Of a DNA stretch of 52,452 nucleotides, positions 12,726-49,384 are shown in pieces. A model generated the notes under the pieces. That model saw only the letters and a program-made list of their open reading frames with translations. It was not told the DNA's origin and searched no databases. A program made the position numbers and the translations under genes. This DNA is from Escherichia phage EcoM1: the sequence record PQ818760.1. One strand, 5' to 3'. Numbering within the stretch: the first letter of the stretch is position 1; each line of letters starts with the position of its first letter.

Positions 12726-14174
12726 TTACTGAACGAAGTTGCCGGAGATAACTGCACCTTGCAGTGCACCAGAACCAATCGCAATGAAGGAAGTACCTTC
12801 CCAGATACGAGCACCTTTCTGAGATTGCATCAGAGCCAAGTCGGTAGACAGGACTTTGTAACCATCCGGATAGAAGTTGCCTTCATTGTCGTAACCTGGA
12901 GCAATCAGACCATTGGTCACAGCCAGTTCCAGAGCCAGAGTAACCTGTTGGTTTACCAGAGCCACACCAGTATCGGTCCAAGGAATCTTGGTCGTAGAAG
13001 TGTAGAACAGGTTGAACACGTTGGCACGAACTTTAGAGGTCAGCCAAGATACACCCTGAACGGTATCGAACCAAGTGCCGTCAGCCATCTTGCCGTTGTA
13101 GAACATAGTGTTCCCACCAACGTTGATGAATGCGTTACCATTTACACGCTCAAGTGCAGCGAGCTGGTTCGGGGACAGGTCAGCAGTCTTGATAGCCGGA
13201 CCCTGTTTAAATGCCAGAACGAGTGCAGAGTTTGCAACGTTGAAGTTGACAGTAGATGCACGGCCCAGGATAGAAATCTCCGGATACTCGTCACCATTGT
13301 CAGAGGCATCATATACCAGCAGGGTACGCTGGAGGTTCTGTTCTTTAGCCCGTTTGAAGCTAGATTCTGCACCAACAACAAGAATCTGTGGGTCGCTGTC
13401 AGCCCAGCCGAACACTTTCTCGTTTGCTTCTGCCCATTTAGCAACGGTCATCTGAACATTGCCAGAAGAACTGCCGCGATATTTGCGGTCAATTGCAACG
13501 AAGAAGAAGTCGAACGTAGAGTTGAGGATTGCGTTCAGGTCGGAACCTACAGATACTTCATCAGTGCCATGCACATACACCGGACTTGATTCCGCATCCA
13601 GTTTGAATGCTGGAGCAGCAGAGCCGTATACGTCACCAATAATGGAGCTAGCGCCCACAGACTTGGCGACAACTTTGAAAGTACCTTCGCTGTTGGACAT
13701 GGTTACTGGGATACCCGCAGCAACCAGTGCCGCGTTTGCCATAGAGGTAGCAGCATCAAAGTCATGTGCAGAAGAGAAGTTGATTGGAGCGGTAGAACGG
13801 TCTACGCCATCAACGTTAATGGACAGCACGCCATTGGTTAACGCAGTGATAGTTTCCAGAGTTGCAGCAGCAGATGCTGTGACAGACCCAGAAGTTGCCG
13901 GAGTAACATCTTCATGAGTGATAGCACCCACAAGGAAATACTTCGGAGTCGGTTTCTGAGAAAACCACGCCAAAGCTGCATTATAGATTTCACCAGATGG
14001 GAAATCAGCAGATACAGCAGCCATGCTGGTATACTGGCGTACAGGAACGCGTTCGCCCGGCGCTGGAACAAACTGCTTGCTCAAGAACAGGAGCGGACCA
14101 AAACCCTCCACGGCAACAGCATTCGGAGATACCGCAATGTTGACCTGGATGATATCGGAAATTGGAATTGCCAT
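12726..14174 (-). CDS. tail sheath protein
   Basis: 482 aa directly upstream of the tube-sized gene, the canonical sheath-tube order of contractile tails; no motif check possible. Confidence 0.5.
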   Translation of the reverse strand: MAIPISDIIQVNIAVSPNAVAVEGFGPLLFLSKQFVPAPGERVPVRQYTSMAAVSADFPSGEIYNAALAWFSQKPTPKYFLVGAITHEDVTPATSGSVTASAAATLETITALTNGVLSINVDGVDRSTAPINFSSAHDFDAATSMANAALVAAGIPVTMSNSEGTFKVVAKSVGASSIIGDVYGSAAPAFKLDAESSPVYVHGTDEVSVGSDLNAILNSTFDFFFVAIDRKYRGSSSGNVQMTVAKWAEANEKVFGWADSDPQILVVGAESSFKRAKEQNLQRTLLVYDASDNGDEYPEISILGRASTVNFNVANSALVLAFKQGPAIKTADLSPNQLAALERVNGNAFINVGGNTMFYNGKMADGTWFDTVQGVSWLTSKVRANVFNLFYTSTTKIPWTDTGVALVNQQVTLALELAVTNGLIAPGYDNEGNFYPDGYKVLSTDLALMQSQKGARIWEGTSFIAIGSGALQGAVISGNFVQ

Positions 14175-31363: not shown

Positions 31364-32014
31364 CTATTCCTGTTTAATGAGTGCCTCCCAGCAAACAGGA
31401 AACAACTCTGACATAATTTTATTAACTTCTTCTGCAAACAAACGTGCCTCATATTGGGCGTGCTCTGTAGAGCGTTGCTTGTACATATTAGCCCAGCCCA
31501 GCAAAGAGCCAGTCCAAATCCATGTAGTCATCATGGATTGTGGCAACACCATTCGGGCTTGCTCTGGAGCAATCCCCAAACCAATTAACGTTTCATACTC
31601 TGCAATGCAAGCCTTGTTGTGGATTTCCATGCGATAGTGAATATCGTCAGCAAAATCCTGTGGCAATGGTTGTGCGGTCTGAGTCATCAACTTTTCAGGA
31701 CGACCAAACACCACATCAGGTACAAAGCATTCAATTTCGATTGCTTCTCCATCTTTGTAACGACGGCTAACTTCGTTCCAACGAAATCCCACCTGGTGCT
31801 TACCCAGTTGGCGTGCAACAAAGATTGGTGCAGTGCAGCGTAATGTTACATACGCATGGGCAAAAGGTGTATTGTGCTTATGCTTTGCGAGAAATTCAAT
31901 CAGCTTCTCGTCGCGCAATGTCATCTCGTGGGACTCTGCACCATAAGAAGCTCGTGCAGCATTAACAGTTGTGAGGTCGCTGCCCATGTGGTCAACGAGT
32001 GTTGCAGTAATCAT
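31364..32014 (-). CDS. thyX: flavin-dependent thymidylate synthase homolog (ThyX family)
   Basis: Aligns by eye to ThyX across the signature region and the C-terminal ARMVLPQS...STEHAQYEARLFAEEV block, but the RHR triad reads KHQ. Confidence 0.65.
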   Translation of the reverse strand: MITATLVDHMGSDLTTVNAARASYGAESHEMTLRDEKLIEFLAKHKHNTPFAHAYVTLRCTAPIFVARQLGKHQVGFRWNEVSRRYKDGEAIEIECFVPDVVFGRPEKLMTQTAQPLPQDFADDIHYRMEIHNKACIAEYETLIGLGIAPEQARMVLPQSMMTTWIWTGSLLGWANMYKQRSTEHAQYEARLFAEEVNKIMSELFPVCWEALIKQE

Positions 32015-32069
32015 TTGCTCTCCGGTTCATATGGTGGGAGATAATTAGCTCCGCACCATGATAATGGTA

Positions 32070-32300
32070 TTATTTTAATGACGCCTGTATTTCTTTCAGC
32101 GACGCATTTAGTACAGAACGCTTTTCATATTCGCGTTGATTGTACGTGTTTGTCAGTGCTTCCGCAGCTTCTATTGACAAGATTGCAAAACCACCAAAGG
32201 CATTGCGAACTTCTTCAATATCCAGGTGCAGGACTTCACTTGTGATTTGACTGGCTATTACGGCCTTATAAATCTCTTCGGCAATTTCAGCAGTTTTCAT
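32070..32300 (-). CDS. hypothetical protein
   Basis: 76 aa minus-strand ORF upstream of the ThyX-like gene. Confidence 0.35.
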   Translation of the reverse strand: MKTAEIAEEIYKAVIASQITSEVLHLDIEEVRNAFGGFAILSIEAAEALTNTYNQREYEKRSVLNASLKEIQASLK

Positions 32301-33244
32301 GTTTCTCTCCGGTTAAAATTTAAGTAAGTGTCCTGACGTGGACTATTACGAACATTACAATACATTGGCTTAAATGGTGTTTCCACTGCGGCCAAGACAC
32401 TTATTAAATTTGATTCGAACCGCCCAAGTGAATCAGCCTTGTTTATGGGGACCATCGGGGAAAAGTATAAACCCGCCTAATGCTCGCATCATGTTTGAAC
32501 ATTAAGAACCCTCGACTTGCATATTTCATGTGTATAGGAACATAGTCTGGATTTTGAATCCAGCTAACTTCGGGATGAGGAGTAACCCAAACGAAAGCCT
32601 GAACTTTCTTTCTGCACAACACAATCAGCGCAACTAAGCCGTATCGCTACGGTATGCCAGACGCTCGCATGAGCCTTTTGAACAGAGGCATAACTGTTTG
32701 TTAAAAGTTGGGAGGGTGGAATGCGACCACCTACGATACAATATCGTCCACAGCACTTTCTCCCGGGTATTTGGTGGATTCGGTGAACGATAAGTTCACA
32801 ATTACACAGTCGGCCTCGGATGCTTCATCCCTATCCCATCGTGCAGGTTTAATTAACTCTACGAATCCATTGAATTTGGTGACCGATACGTTGGTCAGAC
32901 GCTGTGGCCTTTACGCGGCCAACGTGCCATTAATGCTGGCAAGACAGAGCTAACGTTCTCAAGCACTTTGGCGAGGATGTTCTCGGACACTGTTTTAGGA
33001 AGTGACCACCTGAACTTTCTCGCGTTCAATACGAGGCAGCAATTTTAATTGTTATGCCCAGAGCAACTTGCAGGTTTGTTTGAGTTGGAGTCCTGCTTCC
33101 AAACGCATGGGCTTACACCATCACCGCAATAAGTTGCTAGAGTCTCGTTATTTAAAGTCGCGCACTCCCTCGACTATAATGTACGTGTATTTAAAGTCCC
33201 GTACCGGACTGCCAAATGAAATGCTATGGCGAGCATTTGTTCAC

Positions 33245-33454
33245 TCACTGTCGGGTAAGTTTCGAACACTTTTGTGCCCACGTTTCATTGTGGACTAAAA
33301 TCTGTGTTTTGGTTTCGCGTGACAGTATTTTCACTTCTGCAACATCCAAATATATTGGTTGTGCAATTAAGCAATAATCACTTACGAACCCACTTTGAGA
33401 GCAACTCACTATCGACATTGCTATCAGAACTGCTAGACACTTCTTTCTGAACAT
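33245..33454 (-). CDS. o-spanin (Rz1-like outer-membrane lipoprotein)
   Basis: 69 aa with lipoprotein signal ending SIVSC (lipobox-like), two further Cys; starts inside the i-spanin gene in another frame and extends beyond it. Confidence 0.5.
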   Translation of the reverse strand: MFRKKCLAVLIAMSIVSCSQSGFVSDYCLIAQPIYLDVAEVKILSRETKTQILVHNETWAQKCSKLTRQ

Positions 33455-33614
33455 GCGATTTAATCTCGATAGATTCTTTTAATGAATCTAGTTGCTTCTC
33501 TTTGGCTTCCTGACGCTCCTCGGCTTTGCCTGAGCTTTTGCCTTTGAGGAACACTGCAATAAGAATACCAAATGCAGTCAGGACGCCAAGAACTATTGAT
33601 TTAAGCTGTTGCAT
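33378..33614 (-). CDS. i-spanin (Rz-like)
   Basis: 78 aa: N-terminal transmembrane helix (IVLGVLTAFGILIAVFL) followed by a charged coiled-coil-like region; overlapped by the o-spanin frame. Confidence 0.55.
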   Translation of the reverse strand: MQQLKSIVLGVLTAFGILIAVFLKGKSSGKAEERQEAKEKQLDSLKESIEIKSHVQKEVSSSSDSNVDSELLSKWVRK

Positions 33615-33622
33615 AAATCACC

Positions 33623-33763
33623 TTAGATGGCACACGCACCGCTTGAGCAGTCATTATCGCCAGCACCAGGAACGATTGCTTCTTCGTCCTGCTTCTTCTT
33701 GAGTTCTTCAATTGCTTCTTCGGCAGCACCGAAGTCCAAATTGTCTAGTGCATCAATGTCCAT
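33623..33763 (-). CDS. small acidic protein (46 aa)
   Basis: ATG at 33761-33763 to TAA at 33623-33625, found by hand (below the track threshold); sits between the tRNA-like gene and the spanins. Confidence 0.2.
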   Translation of the reverse strand: MDIDALDNLDFGAAEEAIEELKKKQDEEAIVPGAGDNDCSSGACAI

Positions 33764-33789
33764 GAGGACTCCATGTTATTGTTGAAGTG

Positions 33790-33884
33790 GGTGGACGAGG
33801 TTGGATTCGAACCAACGACACATCTGTCGAACAGATTGCTCTACCTGACTAAGCTCTGGAGCAGACCTTCTGAGCTACTCGTCC
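33790..33884 (-). tRNA. tRNA-like gene, possibly tRNA-Leu(CAG), non-canonical D-arm
   Basis: Perfect 7-bp acceptor stem (GGACGAG/CTCGTCC), canonical T-arm GTTGG-TTCGAAT-CCAAC, discriminator A then CC; candidate anticodon loop GT-CAG-GT with a long variable hairpin. I could not fold a standard D-stem by hand. Confidence 0.45.
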
Positions 33885-34782
33885 GAATAAGGTGGGGTTT
33901 TGGTAACGCAGGTTTTCCCGAACTGCGAGGCTTGTAGAATCCGTGAGTCGCCTACTGTGTTTTGACATAACGTGGGATTGATGGTCCCGACTCACTTCAT
34001 CTCAGGTACGAGGCACTACTTTGCGAGTGCAAGCAGGTGTTGAACCCAAGTACCAACAGGCAACCTGATTTAATCTACCTTTGTAGATACCATCGGTTAT
34101 GAGCAGTTTATTTCCATGCTCAGGGCAACTCACTTTAGGGTGAATTAGGTTACGCAGTGCAGCTTCGAAGTCGCTGCCACAGGCTTGAGATTCCTGTGTG
34201 GAGGGAAATCCAGAGGAGCACTTCCCCAAGGAGTTACGTTTCAAATTGGCATAGCTTCTCACACTAAACCAATTGAAGACATTCCAGTGTGCTCGTCCGT
34301 CCTCTAGAAATATCCAACTGCATAATTAAGTTTGTACTCTGTCACATCCCCACGCGCACTGGAGGACTTAAGCCTGCTTTGCATCGCAGAATACAAATTA
34401 ATTATTGCTCCGATTTATTAATCACATCTCGAAGCCACAATGCGCCAAATTTGGTTACGTGGGATTGGAAGACCACGGAGAGGACTTAAATTTAATTAAG
34501 CCGCAACTCGCATTTCAGAATCATTTGCATTTATTTTAAATGAATAAAACAGTCGCAATAACTTCGGGCAGTTTAGGCCCGTCGTAAGACTCAGAAAACT
34601 ACTTCAATGAACACTCTTGTCTGGGCCACGAGATTGGGCATCGGCCTACCTCCCAACTCTAATCACAAGAATGCTCATTGAAGCCCACTCTTCCTTTCAG
34701 AATGGGTTCAAGGCAGCACCGGAAAACTTCCAGTGCATGCCAGATCGATTTAGCTTAGTCTCTCAAGTTTGCCATCGGCAAC

Positions 34783-35121
34783 TTAGAATACCGGAGCTTC
34801 TTCAACCGCAGCTTCGGCAGCTTCGGCAACACTTGCGTCAGCAACTTTAGCTTCTTTCGGAGTATCGAACTTAGTACGCTCAACTTCCGGCTCACCAGCT
34901 TCAACCCACGGCAGATAGAATGCCAGGAACTGCTCGATGGTGTTCTTCTGCATGGAGCGAGAACGGTCGATAGCACCAACGGTGTTCAGGTACGCTTCGG
35001 CAGCTTTCTCAATTTTAGCACCGTTTTCCAGTTTGAAGTCATGTGCATTACACTCTGCTTCGGTCAGGAACAGGGAACCATCGTTAGCTTCGTACTGAGT
35101 TACGGTTACAATCTTAGCCAT
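34783..35121 (-). CDS. acidic early protein
   Basis: 112 aa with strongly acidic Ala/Glu-rich C-terminus; ATG 80 nt downstream of a copy of the promoter-like element. Confidence 0.4.
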   Translation of the reverse strand: MAKIVTVTQYEANDGSLFLTEAECNAHDFKLENGAKIEKAAEAYLNTVGAIDRSRSMQKNTIEQFLAFYLPWVEAGEPEVERTKFDTPKEAKVADASVAEAAEAAVEEAPVF

Positions 35122-35200
35122 TTGTATATACCTTATATTGAATAGTTTTGCACGCCACGGTGACGTGACTTAGATAAAAATTAAAGAGCCTTTCTCTTTC

Positions 35201-35221
35201 CACATCCAACTAATGTTTCAG
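35201..35221 (-). promoter_or_regulatory. phage promoter-like element
   Basis: + strand cacatccaactaatgtttcag; gene-strand reading ctgaaACATTAGTTGGATGTG; 80 nt upstream of the ATG at 35121. Confidence 0.4.
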
Positions 35222-45338: not shown

Positions 45339-45360
45339 TTTATTCTCCTAAGTTAAAAGA

Positions 45361-45424
45361 ACTCCCTACAGAACGATTGTGGAGGTCTTGTCTTACCTCA
45401 ATCCACCTTAAAGTTGTAGGGAGT
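45361..45424 (-). promoter_or_regulatory. structured leader (10-bp inverted repeat with nested stem)
   Basis: ACTCCCTACA (45361-45370) pairs with TGTAGGGAGT (45415-45424); nested GAGGT/ACCTC stem inside; 23 nt upstream of the first early gene. Confidence 0.35.
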
Positions 45425-45531
45425 ATGTGACACAGCAAGTGCCGAAAAACTACAATGATTAGCTTGGAGACATAATCTCTCTAAAATCTGTCACACAATT
45501 TCAGCAGAATTTACAGAGATTTGGTCTTATT

Positions 45532-45548
45532 CACATGCAACTAATGAT
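45532..45548 (-). promoter_or_regulatory. phage promoter-like element (GCATGTG variant)
   Basis: + strand cacatgcaactaatgat; same as the recurrent element with c-to-g at one position. Confidence 0.3.
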
Positions 45549-46446
45549 AAATGGACATGCTTAATTGCAACTAACTCATCTGCCAAATAGACGAATTTTG
45601 TCACAATTAAACATGCATCATTAATTACAGGTTTGCTCCTATCTTGGAATGTATTTGGCACATCAAGAAGTGGCGCAATAGGTACGGAAAACCGACCATT
45701 TACAGCATAATAAAACTAATTAAATAAAGGGTTTTACCCCAATATTGTCACAATATTTACATGCGATGATAAAGCCTTCGCTTGGCTGGAAGCCAGTATT
45801 CATGCGGGTTGCAAGAATATTGGGTCAATACTGATACAGCTATTACATGCGAAATTGGCACAAATGTTGTTACAAAATTAACATGCCAGATTGGTAGACG
45901 ATTGTATCTTCGAGGTGATTAGTCCTCTAACAATTCTGCCACATTCCAACATGCCAATTTGTAGCAATATTTACATGCCATACTGCGACAATATTGTCAC
46001 AATATTTGTTGCTCAAAATCGGGGCGGGCTACGGGATTAGTTTCGATGCTTTGTCCGACTTCTTCTCTTCTTTCGAATTCTGATTGAAAGAAAGAAGCAT
46101 GTCCAAAAGTTCCAATATTACCAAAGTTATCTCCCGGCTTGTGGGTGGGCCTTTATAATAGGAGATGGAGCAATATTGAAACAAGTGGACATGCTGATTT
46201 GCTGACTTTCTTGTAACTTAATCAAGATGGCTAACACGATGTTCTGTTGTTAGTTCAGCACCGGAAGTAACAGTTTCGAATGATAATCCTACTTCACACA
46301 TGGTTGCTGGAACTTTGTCCGGCCAAAGACAGGGAGTTCAATGATTGCCACATCATTACAACACTGTATGTTTAGTTGACATGCTGAAATGTTTCTAGAA
46401 TGATTTCAACATGACATGCGGAATACTTCTCCGTATTCTGTTACTT

Positions 46447-46464
46447 CACATCCAACTAATGTCG
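46447..46464 (-). promoter_or_regulatory. phage promoter-like element
   Basis: + strand cacatccaactaatgtcg; coordinates anchored on the plus ORF starting at 46411. Confidence 0.35.
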
Positions 46465-46512
46465 AATATCGAGACAATATTACATGCAGCAATATTGTCT
46501 GAATATTGGGAA

Positions 46513-46680
46513 TCAGTTGAGCGTAGGCTTAACAACTTCATACTGCTTATCACCATCAGTGATTTCACAGTCTACATAGATATTCTCTTCACGAGCTGCA
46601 AACTTACGTGCTTCCTCTAAAGTCTCAAACTTCTCACAAACTGTTTTGCCGTAGTATGTAACGAGGTTAACTGCAAACAT
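46513..46680 (-). CDS. small protein (55 aa)
   Basis: Found by hand: GGAG 7 nt upstream of ATG at 46680, TGA at 46513-46515; a variant promoter-like element ends 29 nt upstream. Confidence 0.3.
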   Translation of the reverse strand: MFAVNLVTYYGKTVCEKFETLEEARKFAAREENIYVDCEITDGDKQYEVVKPTLN

Positions 46681-46708
46681 ATTATGCTCCAAATTGGTTT
46701 ATTAGATT

Positions 46709-46725
46709 CACATGCAACTAATGCC
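46709..46725 (-). promoter_or_regulatory. phage promoter-like element (GCATGTG variant)
   Basis: + strand cacatgcaactaatgcc, immediately after the polymerase stop and 29 nt upstream of the 55-aa ORF. Confidence 0.3.
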
Positions 46726-46743
46726 ATCCTTGGCACATAGTTG

Positions 46744-48684: not shown

Positions 48685-48752
48685 TTGTAAGTCTCCAAGA
48701 TTGTGTATGATTTAACTGAAACGGATTATAATAGCGTAGCCATTACACAATT

Positions 48753-48770
48753 CACTTCCAACTAATATCA
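48753..48770 (-). promoter_or_regulatory. phage promoter-like element upstream of the polymerase gene
   Basis: + strand cacttccaactaatatca, 69 nt upstream of the polymerase ATG; a TATAAT hexamer lies between it and the gene. Confidence 0.35.
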
Positions 48771-48909
48771 CAAACCTGTGCCATTGTTACAACAGCACGG
48801 AGACTTTGACCTTGACCTATAAGCGAAGCGCCTAACTTGGTGTTGTTTGAAAGCCGATAGGCTTTAGGAAAAAGTTGGGGTAGGGACCGTATTTTAAGTC
48901 CGATAGGAC

Positions 48910-49270
48910 GTTGGGCTTCCCCTCCTCGGAGATAAAAATTTTAAAATAATAATGTCACAACTTCCCCTCCTCGCTGGCCCAAAAATAAAAATTATAATTT
49001 TGCCACAATTCTAGTCTCATTAATATTGTAGCAATTTGAGTCTCATTAATTCCGTAACAATATTCGAAATAAAAAAAATTATATAAAAATTTTTATAACA
49101 TAGTCGGACTTCTGTTGTTACTTCGTAACGGGTTCGAACAAATTTCGGCTAGATACAGCTGACCGACCGTGAACGAATCTATATCCAGGTACAGTTGACC
49201 GACCATGTACCATTTGGTTTTGAACTTTACGCATTCCTAATATTACTTTAAATATTGTAGCAATATTGGG
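48910..49270 (-). repeat. AT-rich non-coding block with paired direct repeats
   Basis: Duplicated cttcccctcctcg (48916, 48961), (t/g)agtctcattaat (49012, 49038), ACAG(C/T)TGACCGACC(G/A)TG (49155, 49191), aatattgtagcaat (49022, 49251), and long A/T runs. Coordinates anchored on the polymerase start and the nrdB stop. Confidence 0.45.
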
Positions 49271-49384
49271 AATAAGTAATATTTAACTTTACTTATTTTA
49301 TTCTAGCTCAAAGAGAAACGACGCTAACGCATCGAATCTCTTCTCGCATATTAACTGACAAACGTCAGCCCTCACCGTATCCAA

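Follow-up and report, generated by a model that had tools for sequence, protein, structure and literature searches.

tmRNA, with which bacteria rescue stalled ribosomes, has been seen as one closed molecule, or as two paired pieces, in which tRNA-like and mRNA-like parts act together. In the one-piece ssrA of E. coli (RF00023), an A-rich tract with AUA at positions -6 to -4 precedes a GCA resume codon, which opens a 10-codon tag (ANDENYALAA) with its stop codon in helix 5 and H-type pseudoknots downstream. Alphaproteobacteria, some Betaproteobacteria and Cyanobacteria have two-piece versions (RF01849 and RF04321), in which tag template and acceptor function reside on separate pieces cut from one precursor, with the acceptor piece upstream and a stem between the pieces. 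Parts of trans-translation are also borne by phages: conventional tmRNAs found by ARAGORN are known from cluster C mycobacteriophages such as Bxz1 and from Bacillus phage G, and papers later than the 2014 census of phage ssrA have added huge phages. That census recorded phage tmRNAs only in mycobacteriophages and Bacillus phage G, and described in mycobacteriophage DS6A little more than a tRNA-like domain, a similar molecule being an inhibitor of tmRNA, perhaps through titration of SmpB (PMC4131195). Other phage RNAs that invite comparison are the lambdoid late-leader non-coding RNAs (ileZ-argN-argO of Stx phages, STnc100, Pas, AgvB and AsxR), and GOLLD and ROOL, conserved non-coding stretches of several hundred nucleotides that adjoin tRNA-like genes.

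The phage module described here, termed the core, shares with E. coli ssrA the above-described tract, resume codon, 10-codon tag (ANDx..., ending in Ala/Val-Ala), stop codon in a helix 5 and downstream pseudoknots. It differs from one-piece tmRNA in having no closing G3:U70 acceptor stem, T-arm or CCA, in being flanked by long hairpins, and in that two downstream pseudoknots only were found, PK1 not being defined. Its best, though weak, Rfam matches are to the two-piece versions, with which it may also share the separation of tag template and acceptor function on pieces cut from one precursor; however, its tRNA-like elements lie downstream and have a 7-bp acceptor stem of their own. Unlike the conventional phage tmRNAs, the core is absent from the 2014 census, and its host phages infect Enterobacterales. 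Like DS6A it represents one half only, but the opposite half. In the one prophage examined it lies between Q and the holin gene, in the slot downstream of Q and pR' that is shared with the lambdoid late-leader RNAs, although none of the latter bears a tag frame. In 933W, where we checked for the module and found it absent, this slot holds rare-codon tRNAs; in Klebsiella phage Magnus, STnc100 is found near the core, and a paper on the regions flanking Pas and STnc100 does not mention tmRNA. The resemblance to GOLLD and ROOL is likewise partial, as neither gives an Rfam match even at E<=10 and the islands under study are modular (hairpins, core, tRNA-like elements) rather than one large fold. 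On balance, we favor the reading that both islands are RNA-gene regions, with island 2 holding a tmRNA-derived tag template in a phage ribosome-rescue RNA cluster and the 3' third of island 1 forming the leader of gp32.

Two conserved non-coding islands

The window, i.e. the whole analyzed stretch of 52,452 nucleotides from Escherichia phage EcoM1 (PQ818760.1), belongs to a phiEcoM-GJ1/ST32-like phage of the Chaseviridae and contains two islands:

32301 to 33244, minus strand: island 1, between the o-spanin gene and the gp32-like gene; non-coding and conserved
33885 to 34782, minus strand: island 2, between the gp29-like gene and the tRNA-like element; non-coding and conserved

A first-pass annotation had singled out these stretches as poor in ORFs, and their delimitation holds. 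Island 1 has no gene-strand ORF of at least 60 aa, and only one stretch of this kind in the window is larger; on the same strand, island 2 has just an ORF of 86 aa (34002-34262) plus the tail of an overlapping TTG ORF. As was also claimed, the islands bracket the tRNA-like element (33788-33884), a 46-aa ORF and the spanin pair. The accompanying description of the genome as otherwise gap-free has to be abandoned, given the equal or larger gene-strand ORF-free stretches at 45339-46743 (1405 nt) and 48685-49384 (700 nt).

Substitutions were counted by codon phase in a 9-genome alignment of relatives. The five flanking genes are strongly phase-periodic, with an excess at the third position (gp29 14/29/58; the 46-aa ORF 3/1/19; the spanin genes 10/2/20 and 3/1/11; gp32 8/5/30; p<=0.004 for each), whereas the counts are flat in island 1 (46/47/40, p=0.72) and island 2 (40/38/47, p=0.59), and the 86-aa ORF shows no third-position bias (12/7/5). 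Indels that are not multiples of three (1, 2, 4, 5, 11, 13 nt and others) are almost confined to the islands, so that both components of the protein-coding signature sought there, third-position excess and indels in threes, are absent. Despite the indels, island blocks are 95-100% conserved within the genus, those of island 2 reaching 100%, and both gaps are also present in phiEcoM-GJ1, SA91KD, Faunus, 4HA13, Aioli, Y2 and phiA050. Their retention at the same positions in other Chaseviridae genera, together with the conserved blocks, excludes neutral decay. The earlier suggestion of a decayed remnant of a lost module is further contradicted by the core, for which all Chaseviridae loci tested gave a match at E<=1e-24. 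We take both islands to be regions of RNA genes, neither protein-coding nor junk.

The alternative suggestion of structured RNAs is borne out by the hairpins of island 2 (z=-6.4), by its tmRNA-like module with two covarying pseudoknots and by 11 helices in the 3' 330 nt of island 1. The proposed comparison with related phages recovered not only the gaps across genera but also compensatory changes in the core and the island 1 leader. The proposed Infernal/Rfam scan had a mixed outcome: no family reaches its gathering score in the window (15 related loci give tRNA and RNAI only), and at E<=10 over 32000-35200 there is no GOLLD, ROOL, group I or II intron or riboswitch, but only sub-threshold matches to tRNA and the tmRNA families. 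The initial readings were thus right in part as to RNA content, but the key content, a tmRNA-like tag template, was absent from them.

The tmRNA-like core and its tag frame

The core and the tag frame within it are located as follows:

34401 to 34600, minus strand: tmRNA-like coding module (core), with a 5' AGUUUUC motif, an A-rich tract, the tag frame, a helix-5-like hairpin and two pseudoknots
34496 to 34528, minus strand: tag reading frame, GCA AAU GAU UCU GAA AUG CGA GUU GCG GCU UAA, i.e. ANDSEMRVAA*, as read from the sequence

A covariance model of the core (R1) matches the window at 34401-34587 with 110 bits (E=4.7e-25). It also accommodates E. coli ssrA (12.9 bits, E=0.0011 within the 901-nt ssrA locus), the GCA resume codon, the tag and helix 5 all falling in register. 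Weak matches to the Rfam tmRNA families were obtained for the window, Magnus, VLCpiS13b and Y2, with the window core remaining below the gathering scores (tmRNA_permuted 20.3 bits versus 47; alpha_tmRNA 14.5 versus 50). The 5' AGUUUUC motif resembles the D-loop segment of tmRNA, and the A-rich tract presents A-6, U-5 and A-4 ahead of the resume codon. The sequence directly preceding GCA is AAAAUAAAU in the window, ends in AGAUAAAU in most copies and is AAUAGUC in E. coli; the role of A86 and U85 upstream of the tmRNA resume codon is well established. At the level of sequence comparison, these shared features establish the homology of the core to the coding region of tmRNA.

The tag frame is open, with exactly 10 codons and a stop, in all 126 of 126 copies, and always conforms to AN[DE]xxxxx[AV]A. 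All four GCN codons are used for the last Ala, its G and C being invariant; entropy by codon position is 0.62/0.55/1.07, and pN/pS is 0.54 with no stops, as against 1.61 and 0.91 in the other frames, which contain stops in 25-27 of 32 sequences. The frame is under coding-type selection. Its stop codon sits in the helix-5-like hairpin, the outer stem of which is 88% paired and shows compensatory changes, and since part of the tag region lies in this helix, constraint at the RNA level adds to the conservation of the tag. An ordinary ORF running through the tag was rejected: most copies have an in-frame UAG 8 codons upstream, neither an ATG nor an SD is present, and the AUG frame that overlaps the tag is not open.

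Downstream of the tag frame, two H-type pseudoknots were recovered:

34445 to 34477, minus strand: PK2-like pseudoknot; stem 1 pairs 34473-34477 with 34458-34462, and stem 2 pairs loop 34465-34468 with 34445-34448
34408 to 34444, minus strand: PK3-like pseudoknot; stem 1 pairs 34439-34444 with 34423-34428, and stem 2 pairs 34429-34434 with 34408-34413

Across these stems 97% of cells are paired, in comparison to 33-46% in slid controls, and double changes in the core number 117 as against 30.6 in shuffles. Stem 1 of the PK2-like element covaries at several pairs (CG:24/UA:19; GC:26/AU:11; AU:31/GC:7/UA:4), and its stem 2 is 100% paired in the alternative forms CCAA:UUGG, CCGA:UCGG, CCAG:CUGG and UCGA:UCGA. 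In the PK3-like element, the loop UGUGAUUAAUAA is invariant, stem 1 as obtained from RNAalifold includes one pair with CG:23/UA:11/GC:9, and stem 2 covaries by eye (GCCC/GGGC, CCCUGA/UCAGGG, CUUCGA/UCGGAG, GCGGGAGG/CUCCCGC). Covariation of this kind establishes both predicted pseudoknots. Upstream of the resume codon, where the 5' region aligns poorly, RNAalifold yielded no pairs for a PK1 and no consistent pairing was seen by eye.

The core is found in more than 120 IMG/VR phage contigs, in 171 of 5426 E. coli genomes, where it is unannotated, and in six Enterobacterales species representatives; beyond the Chaseviridae and lambdoid prophages it occurs in T1-like phages and Ackermannviridae. 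A pattern scan of genome contigs gave mostly chance matches, with 6 of 51 confirmed by the model. The core is missed by ARAGORN at default settings, by Rfam at gathering scores and by the existing annotations checked, and literature searches on the tag peptides, on tmRNA-like RNAs in prophages and on tmRNA in lambdoid phages gave no description of this element.

Flanking elements, the tRNA-like gene and the gp32 leader

The remainder of island 2 and the element adjoining it comprise the following features, in the order of the transcribed strand:

34684 to 34706, minus strand: hairpin X, CCCAUUCU-GAAAGGA-AGAGUGGG, directly 5' of the long hairpin; present in the MFE structure
34602 to 34683, minus strand: long hairpin A0:B1 (inverted repeat I1), a 19-bp stem with arms 34665-34683 and 34602-34620 and a variable tip
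33999 to 34400, minus strand: island 2 middle, in which conserved and indel-prone segments alternate; contains the spurious 86-aa ORF
33885 to 33998, minus strand: module Z, with hairpins GUGAGUCG...CGACUCAC and CGCAG...CUGCG, then CAAAACC; directly 5' of the tRNA-like element
33788 to 33884, minus strand: tRNA-like element, with a 7-bp acceptor stem GGACGAG/CUCGUCC, A73, CCCA and a canonical T-arm

The two hairpins together fold with z=-6.42. The stem of hairpin X is kept in Y2 and in two further loci (L102 and L042) with another loop or an insert; A0:B1 is replaced in GJ1 and Bp7 by another long hairpin on the same CUUCAAU/AUUGAAG base, and is multiplied in SA91KD and Mangalitsa. In its predicted fold, A0:B1 is like a substrate of RNase III. 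The island 2 middle has a conservation of 0.81-1.0; in relatives it shows gaps of 62, 116 and 276 nt and is also an insertion site of HNH or Imm genes. Module Z, as seen in the centroid fold, additionally precedes tRNA-like elements in L042, L102, Aioli and Y2; its folding z is about 0, and neither it nor the conserved blocks of island 1 differ from shuffles in folding energy (z -1.4 to +0.9).

The first-pass annotation had called a tRNA-like gene here, and the acceptor stem, the T-arm (GUUGG-UUCGAAU-CCAAC), the discriminator base and the CCA-like tail support that designation, but the element departs from a standard tRNA: none is reported by ARAGORN at default settings, and the Rfam tRNA model gives 27.9 bits against a gathering score of 29. 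It folds with z=-2.7 and has an insertion of about 21 nt in the D region, and its "anticodon" loop has 5 nt when all pairs of the stem are formed and reads UCG if the closing pair opens. Relaxed ARAGORN runs read it inconsistently as Lys/Stop or as Thr with a 7-nt intron. The acceptor covaries among relatives (CUUGUCC in GJ1, GGGUAG/CUACCC in Y2), and the middle differs, with a Leu call in GJ1, a Ser call in SA91KD and a long hairpin in Y2. The islands of relatives are filled with tRNA-like elements bearing encoded N-CCA tails. More generally, 81 of 105 copies of the core have a co-oriented tRNA, strict T-arm hairpin or degenerate tRNA-like element within 800 nt downstream, and T-arm hairpins on the opposite strand downstream of the core number none; canonical tRNAs in this position mostly have the anticodon CAU (called Met) or are Arg(UCU). 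The core is associated with tRNA or tRNA-like genes. Since no such element lies within 800 nt in the other 24 of 105 copies, and since protein genes directly follow the core in L061 and L042, a fixed structural link between the two is unsupported.

No tRNA-like domain enclosing the tag frame (G3:U70 acceptor, T-arm, CCA) was recognized in cis: none of the candidate acceptor stems has G3:U70, no stem enclosing the tag frame is followed by CCA, and the candidate long-range pairings examined show no covariation. With its default settings, ARAGORN reports no tmRNA for the window or for any of 125 loci, and none for the window when introns or relaxed thresholds are allowed; at a slightly lowered threshold it calls tmRNAs with these tags among many false calls. 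Several specific topologies were considered and rejected. A standard topology through an upstream GUUGUGG strand fails as a general model, since many copies are without that strand and the 3' strand pairs better beside the tRNA-like element. A permuted tmRNA with hairpin X as T-arm and A0:B1 as acceptor fails for want of a T-loop and a CCA, and because the lambdoid copies lack X. For a helix between strand B1 and the ACUUCAA trailer that follows the tRNA-like element, GJ1 and SA91KD show no covariation. An RNAduplex comparison of the 5' end of the core with the interiors of tRNA-like elements was uninformative because a duplex was found everywhere.

Island 1 and the region upstream of island 2 contribute three further features:

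33135 to 33204, minus strand: two copies of GACUUUAAAUA, 39 nt apart (direct repeat D1), the second following a hairpin AGUCG-N10-CGACU
32313 to 32626, minus strand: structured leader upstream of gp32, with a closing helix UGUGA/UCACA and several hairpins, from RNAalifold
35199 to 35214, minus strand: putative phage promoter motif ATTAGTTGGAWGTGRA, the last copy before the islands, upstream of gp29

The GACUUUAAAUA motif has 7 matches in the window against 1.3 expected, and motif and hairpin are conserved, with a compensatory change in Faunus (GGUCG/CGACC). A replication origin or iterons in island 1 were rejected, only one two-copy repeat having been found. The evidence for structure in island 1 is covariation and pertains to 32313-32626. 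Here RNAalifold yields 11 helices with 75 pairs, 27 of them with compensatory changes; 93.4% are paired, as against 34-47% when slid, and double-change pairs number 27 versus 10.3 in shuffles. The conserved loop CUCCUC of one hairpin (32577-32582) is complementary to GGAGAG, and a helix of ~26 bp (32382-32411 with 32316-32342) ends 5 nt before the GGAGAG ribosome-binding site at 32305-32310. The 3' third of island 1 forms a structured 5' leader of gp32, which probably governs the translation or processing of that gene. The ATTAGTTGGAWGTGRA motif, annotated as "putative phage promoter 7" in phiEcoM-GJ1, occurs 10 times where 1.4 matches are expected, always on the minus strand and never within 32301-34782, and a scan of the gene strand of the region for sigma-70 promoters and terminators gave nothing above shuffled expectation. 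The islands are probably co-transcribed with gp29, the 46-aa ORF and the spanins from the motif at 35199-35214. The long tRNA precursor envisaged at first is plausible rather than proven: it accords with the lack of this promoter motif inside the islands and with the co-oriented tRNA or tRNA-like genes that usually follow the module in other phages.

Competing explanations and biological meaning

Of the explanations that grant the core an RNA function, one takes it as an untranslated mimic or decoy of tmRNA that titrates SmpB, S1 and RNase R and so damps or redirects host trans-translation. The want of a tRNA-like domain in cis, the precedent of a partial phage tmRNA in DS6A (PMC4131195) and the conservation of the pseudoknots and the upstream AUA context agree with such a role; yet a decoy needs no exact 10-codon Ala/Val-Ala frame with synonymous third-position variation (pN/pS 0.54), and we regard it as unlikely. 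We consider it distinctly unlikely that the core belongs to a complete but cryptic one- or two-piece tmRNA, the cis tRNA-like domain of which is too divergent or rearranged to be recognized, with an acceptor partner such as the element at 33788-33884 or the UGUGGUG...CACCACA element of the lambdoid and T1-like versions. In locus L078, ARAGORN with -ps95 does report a standard 389-nt tmRNA (T-arm GCCGGUUCGAUUCCGGC, acceptor strand CGCCACA, tag ANDDVVLMAA), the strand just 5' of the core, AGUGCUCUUUCCAGUUUUCGUC, resembles by eye the 5' end of E. coli tmRNA, GGGGCUGAUUCUGGAUUCGAC, and N-CCA-like tails are frequent on the downstream tRNA-like elements. However, the 3' acceptor strand can form more pairs with the strand lying just 5' of its own element than with anything 5' of the tag frame (e.g. 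9 versus 6 bp in VLCpiS13b; 7 versus 5 in Magnus and L126), so that the tRNA-like elements are self-contained. In addition, the upstream strand copy of L025 is mutated without compensation, there is no G3:U70 anywhere, and core and element are separated by about 110 to over 600 nt, with intervening protein genes in some cases.

That the islands are nothing but cis-acting mRNA leaders or spacers (RNase III or RNase P sites, terminators, antiterminators, spanin and gp32 operators), with the tmRNA-like part a relic, appears quite improbable as an account of the whole, while for the 3' part of island 1 a cis-leader is likely. The long perfect hairpins, the leader ending 5 nt before the gp32 ribosome-binding site with its complementary CUCCUC loop, the lambdoid prophage with the core in its late-operon leader and the terminators placed in the islands by the annotators of SA91KD are all in keeping with cis action. 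But the same core recurs in the unrelated gene contexts of Chaseviridae, lambdoid, T1-like and Ackermannviridae phages, which points to an autonomous function rather than control of one neighboring gene, and the coding-type selection on the tag would be left unexplained. Highly improbable, finally, are unrecognized small protein genes or the decayed remains of lost ones. Annotators of related genomes did call many small ORFs in the islands, including phiEcoM-GJ1 gp30, the counterpart of the 86-aa ORF, and labeled some of 70-80 aa as, for example, "endolysin" or "tail tape measure protein"; but these calls disagree between annotations, frameshifting indels are common, and neither the islands nor the 86-aa ORF has the third-position bias that even the 46-aa ORF displays. 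What is listed in the islands of relatives as small "hypothetical proteins", as "endolysin" or as "tail tape measure protein" is very likely spurious, a practical point for annotation.

Under the favored reading, the core belongs to a ribosome-rescue RNA cluster, possibly a split tmRNA, for which we infer a transcription unit, its processing, translation of the tag and a partner supplying the tRNA-like function. In the transcript, long RNase III-type hairpins would precede the tag template, with further modules and a non-decoding tRNA-like element coming after it, and in the most likely mechanism the long hairpins and the tRNA-like element would be the cleavage sites of the precursor. On stalled ribosomes of infected cells, the released template would then be used with SmpB, and nascent chains would be finished and tagged. 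Unlike in ordinary tmRNA, the tRNA-like function would not lie within the same closed molecule, but would be contributed by another module: a tRNA-like RNA of the phage or the entry step of host tmRNA-SmpB. Such a cluster would represent a translation-rescue kit alongside rare-codon tRNAs. As a generalization, it is conceivable, though on present evidence doubtful, that Enterobacterales phages carry a split trans-translation system, in which a tag-template RNA works with a separate non-alanine tRNA-like RNA or takes over host tmRNA-SmpB entry.

The core is a tag template under clear coding selection, with no recognizable tRNA-like domain and usually beside tRNA-like elements or rare-codon tRNAs. 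If it is translated, it would constitute a new way of assembling trans-translation and would put ribosome rescue and the tagging of proteins under phage control; the system would also be directly testable, as proteins can be examined for the phage tag. Should the split system be true, the phage, and not the cell, would set the tag and the fate of unfinished proteins late in infection, by means of a tmRNA architecture not described so far. Even if it is a decoy, the core would represent a phage RNA family that is widespread, unannotated and directed at a central pathway of quality control.

Two conserved islands and their neighbourhood

The two stretches that the first-pass annotation had singled out as ORF-poor, namely island 1 (32301-33244, between the o-spanin gene and gp32) and island 2 (33885-34782, between gp29 and the tRNA-like element), lie in a part of the window where the gene strand is the minus strand. 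On that strand 32301-33244 contains no ORF of 60 aa or more, and 33885-34782 contains just an ORF of 86 aa together with the end of a further, overlapping one. Matches to the region at 80-99% identity come from 56 phage records; most of these belong to Chaseviridae phages of Escherichia, Yersinia and Erwinia, and the closest include ST32 and phiEcoM-GJ1 (genus Carltongylesvirus). The layout of phiEcoM-GJ1 is identical: gp29, the doubtful gp30, a tRNA-Arg which its record labels "may contain an intron", the spanin gene, a 1066-nt gap, gp32, ThyX and the primase/helicase. In an alignment of the region from nine Carltongylesvirus-like genomes, substitutions are strongly periodic by codon phase in all 5 flanking genes, and no periodicity is seen in island 1 (46/47/40, p=0.72) or island 2 (40/38/47, p=0.59), the 86-aa ORF being likewise flat (12/7/5).

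Substitutions by codon phase in the flanking genes (nine-genome alignment; p<=0.004 for each)
gp29: 14/29/58
46-aa ORF: 3/1/19
i-spanin: 10/2/20
o-spanin: 3/1/11
gp32: 8/5/30

The islands are rich in indels of 1, 2, 4, 5, 11, 13, 19 nt and other lengths, whereas the genes are almost devoid of them. Substitutions per column in the islands (0.19-0.23) do not leave the range seen in the neighbouring genes, and a number of island blocks are 95-100% conserved in the nine-genome alignment; the islands are not drifting. ORF calls within them disagree completely among the annotations of related genomes, and the same two gaps recur, at similar lengths, in Faunusvirus, Sabourvirus, Loessnervirus and phiA050. 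The ORF scan, the flat codon phase, the indels and the gaps kept in other genera bear out the ORF-poor reading, and the islands are both conserved and non-coding. Unrecognised small protein genes are effectively excluded as their explanation, and so is the earlier suggestion of a decayed remnant of a lost module, given the 95-100% conserved blocks and the persistence of the gaps across genera.

The description of the remaining genome as gap-free did not hold, as 45339-46743 (1405 nt) and 48685-49384 (700 nt) are equal or larger stretches free of gene-strand ORFs. The former holds three promoter-motif copies (45530, 46445, 46707) and is the counterpart of the gap between gp02 and gp03 in phiEcoM-GJ1; neither is matched by Rfam or by model R1, the covariance model of the island 2 core described below. 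The islands of relatives also hold inserted genes, namely a T4 Imm-like superinfection-immunity gene and HNH endonuclease genes; in island 2 equivalents these occur in Mangalitsa (locus L132, 2283-2537), 4HA13 (L135, 662-1093), DE15 and Pel53. The RNA islands seem to be preferred landing sites of morons and homing endonucleases.

The acidic 46-aa ORF (33623-33763) that adjoins the tRNA-like element is a real gene; its Y2 counterpart ends in ...CDGCKI, and the window version in ...CSSGACAI. The record PP952070.1 (handles H40 and H120), "Staphylococcus phage Pel53", is labelled as a Staphylococcus hyicus phage and shows 84-93% identity to the present E. coli Chaseviridae region; its host label looks doubtful. 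In PO103-1, MLP1 and PYps16N (L127, L129, L130) the 73-76-aa gp32 homologue is called "tail tape measure protein" and the 78-aa i-spanin "endolysin", evidently annotation errors spreading from record to record.

The tmRNA-like tag template of island 2

The Infernal/Rfam scan proposed in the first pass returned only weak matches, to permuted and alphaproteobacterial tmRNA, at a short frame in island 2, and Rfam holds no family for the module.

34528-34496 (-): tag frame, GCA AAU GAU UCU GAA AUG CGA GUU GCG GCU UAA, encoding ANDSEMRVAA

The encoded peptide is closely similar to ANDENYALAA, the tag of E. coli tmRNA. By sensitive blastn, 34406-34556 is the sole part of island 2 common to distant Chaseviridae and to unrelated phages, among them the Ackermannviridae phage Magnus, PH4 and cp16 (155-159 kb) and the Klebsiella phage VLCpiS13b (48 kb), where it nearly always goes unannotated or at most bears a small hypothetical ORF. 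These phages keep the frame and differ in the tag (ANDDVVLMAA, ANEEVYLAVA, ANDNEMRAAA). With the inclusion of a pattern scan of IMG/VR, which matched at least 120 contigs, an open frame of exactly 10 codons of the form AN[DE]xxxxx[AV]A followed by a stop is present in 126 of 126 copies. Across the distinct tag sequences, variability at third codon positions is about double that at the first and second (entropy 0.62/0.55/1.07), and the final Ala codon uses all four GCN codons with G and C invariant. The tag frame has a pN/pS of 0.54 and zero stops; the two alternative frames give 1.61 and 0.91 and are interrupted by stops in most sequences. Such variation is the signature of a translated sequence and shows the tag to be under coding-type selection. 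The tag frame has neither a start codon nor a Shine-Dalgarno sequence, and an in-frame UAG stands eight codons upstream in most copies. The bases at -6 to -4 (AUA) agree with A84 U85 A86 of E. coli tmRNA, which set the reading frame via SmpB.

The core surrounding this frame (34401-34600 on the minus strand) has four helices, which were tested on an alignment of 43 sequences.

Helices of the core (43-sequence alignment)
Helix-5-like hairpin: its outer stem surrounds the tag end
First H-type pseudoknot: hairpin loop pairs with a segment downstream (loop:partner CCAA:UUGG, CCGA:UCGG, CCAG:CUGG, UCGA:UCGA)
Second pseudoknot: one stem proposed by RNAalifold

Across the four helices 97% of cells pair, and double changes number 117 as against 30.6 in shuffles; when partners are slid by 1-3 columns pairing falls to 33-46%. 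Judged by this covariation, the pseudoknots of the core are real. Model R1, built from the same alignment, detects a single copy in the window (34401-34587, 110 bits) and one at the island 2 position in every other Chaseviridae locus tested (E<=1e-24). Its best match on the E. coli ssrA locus falls within ssrA (12.9 bits, E=0.0011 for that locus). This alignment places the resume codon, the tag and helix 5 in register, and we conclude that the core is homologous to the tmRNA coding region.

Two hairpins precede the core, with a joint z of -6.4.

34684-34706 (-): short hairpin, directly upstream of the long hairpin
34602-34683 (-): long hairpin of 19 bp, directly upstream of the core

All long hairpins at this position open with CUUCAAU and close with AUUGAAG. 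Within the same genus, GJ1 and Bp7 carry another hairpin on this base; the hairpin is multiplied, up to several times, in SA91KD and Mangalitsa, with tandem repeats also in L042, and in L061 the same closing helix surrounds a multi-branched domain of about 250 nt. At this one site the hairpins act like modular inserts. The counterpart in lambdoid and T1-like versions is a hairpin whose tip varies and in some cases includes a T-arm. The upstream hairpins resemble RNase III substrates and might be cleaved as such. T1-like versions (L004 2360-2395; L032, L059, L104) have a good sigma-70 promoter directly upstream, TTGACA-N17-TAGATT or similar, from which transcription would start at about AGAUAGUUUUCG; a promoter so placed supports AGAUAGUUUUCG as the point at which the core RNA naturally begins. 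The spacer of some T1-like versions also has UUGUGGUG, a motif with the same sequence as the acceptor strand of the tRNA-like element downstream.

The core family is widespread. A megablast search with a single variant finds it, unannotated, in at least 171 of 5426 complete E. coli genomes, and R1-confirmed matches among GTDB species representatives come from Pantoea, Pseudocitrobacter, Rouxiella, Erwinia and Rosenbergiella. In the one prophage examined it is flanked by the Q antiterminator gene and the holin gene; in phage 933W, where the core is absent, that slot is occupied by ileZ-argN-argO and stx. A search of a paper library for the tag peptides found nothing. A 2014 ssrA census lists phage copies just from mycobacteriophages and Bacillus phage G, plus a DS6A gene with the tRNA-like domain only (PMC4131195), and tmRNA goes unmentioned in a 2026 preprint about sRNAs from these prophage regions.

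Two of the loci have further features. The Magnus core (L003 4305-4519) lies in an ORF-poor region of about 2.5 kb (L003 2100-4700) with annotated tiny ORFs only, 1.7 kb upstream of a match (52.9 bits, gathering score 47) to the prophage sRNA family STnc100. The IMG/VR contig L027 has a Chaseviridae-like core with the tag ANDNYALAAA, followed by a toxin-antitoxin-like ORF pair, and a match to RNAI of ColE1-type replication control (13188-13289, 62.9 bits); it may be a plasmid or phage-plasmid.

Island 1 and transcription

At blastn sensitivity the conserved parts of island 1 are common to other Chaseviridae only, and most of its blocks fold no better than shuffled sequence. Its 3' 330 nt (32313-32626) can be aligned across genera, with 75 predicted pairs in 11 helices, 27 pairs showing compensatory changes, and 93% of cells pairing as against 34-47% with slid partners, all counted on the same alignment that yielded the structure and hence biased in its favour. 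The compensatory changes that the first-pass annotation had proposed to look for in relatives are present both here and in the core.

32577-32582 (-): invariant hairpin loop CUCCUC
32305-32310 (-): gp32 ribosome-binding site GGAGAG; a helix of about 26 bp ends 5 nt before it

The position of this hairpin and helix suggests that the 3' part of island 1 would act as a structured leader controlling gp32. The loop is complementary to the ribosome-binding site about 270 nt downstream, and Aioli and Y2 have a similar loop, GCUCCUCA; loop and site are possibly a long-range translational operator. Farther upstream in island 1 GACUUUAAAUA occurs twice, one copy following a hairpin which covaries in Faunus.

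The window has 10 copies of the promoter motif proposed for phiEcoM-GJ1, where 1.4 would be expected, and every one is on the minus strand. Since the last one ahead of the islands lies at 35199-35214, the window scan places none inside them, and sigma-70 promoter and terminator predictions on the gene strand do not exceed chance, the islands are probably co-transcribed with gp29, the 46-aa ORF and the spanins.

tRNA-like elements and the reading of the core

There is an association of the core family with genes for tRNAs or tRNA-like elements: of 105 copies, 81 are followed within 800 nt on the same strand by a canonical tRNA, a strict T-arm hairpin or a degenerate tRNA-like element. Canonical tRNAs, mostly of anticodon CAU and Arg UCU, follow 26 copies and strict T-arm hairpins 38, with none of the latter on the opposite strand. 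The degenerate element (UGUGGUG...CACCACA) has a D-arm, a hairpin in the T-arm position and tails such as G-CCA, A-CCA, A-CCC and A-CAA.

33788-33884 (-): tRNA-like element with 7-bp acceptor stem, perfect T-arm, A73 and CCCA
33885-33998 (-): conserved two-hairpin module preceding it, in the window, L042, L102, Aioli and Y2

The element of the window has about 21 extra nt in the D region and a 5-nt "anticodon" loop; in relatives its acceptor covaries and its middle part changes completely. Up to four tRNA-like elements, many with encoded N-CCA tails, occur in relatives' islands. The distance from core to element ranges from about 110 to more than 600 nt, and in L061 and L042 protein genes directly follow the core; the link is not fixed. 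In arrays of up to four, such non-standard elements have acceptor stems of 7 bp, canonical T-arms and N-CCA tails that are encoded; they vary in number and type by genus, and some (47-60 nt) comprise no more than an acceptor stem, a single hairpin and a T-arm. The T-loop of E. coli tmRNA, UUCAACU, is also found in the phiA050 element.

Arrays of non-standard tRNA-like elements
L133 1022-1771: Faunus
L102 11779-12528
L134 2927-2986: phiA050
L136, island 1: Aioli
L128, after the tRNA-like element: TH23

The main rivals concern what the core and the islands do. The core might be a cryptic complete tmRNA with an unrecognised tRNA-like domain. At default settings neither the window nor any of 125 loci receives a tmRNA call from ARAGORN; at a slightly lowered threshold, where false calls climb fast, it calls tmRNAs bearing these tags and draws a standard 389-nt tmRNA with a canonical T-arm in L078. 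However, the 3' acceptor strand in such calls pairs better with a strand immediately upstream of the same tRNA-like element than with any strand 5' of the tag, and G3:U70 is absent from all candidate acceptor stems. Since, in addition, no copy shows the defining tRNA-like domain around the tag frame, the core is best regarded as a tmRNA-derived coding module and is not classed as a tmRNA. The other main rivals are a core acting as a decoy that titrates SmpB or other factors, and islands that are purely cis-acting leader elements.

Under the preferred reading of the core as a tmRNA-derived module, the tag would be translated through a trans-translation-like entry, and the tRNA-like function would be supplied separately from the tag template. 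Clusters of rare Arg codons are classic triggers of ribosome stalling and tmRNA tagging, and the neighbouring tRNAs (Arg UCU and anticodon CAU) would therefore fit a ribosome-rescue kit by which the phage may keep ribosomes moving late in infection.
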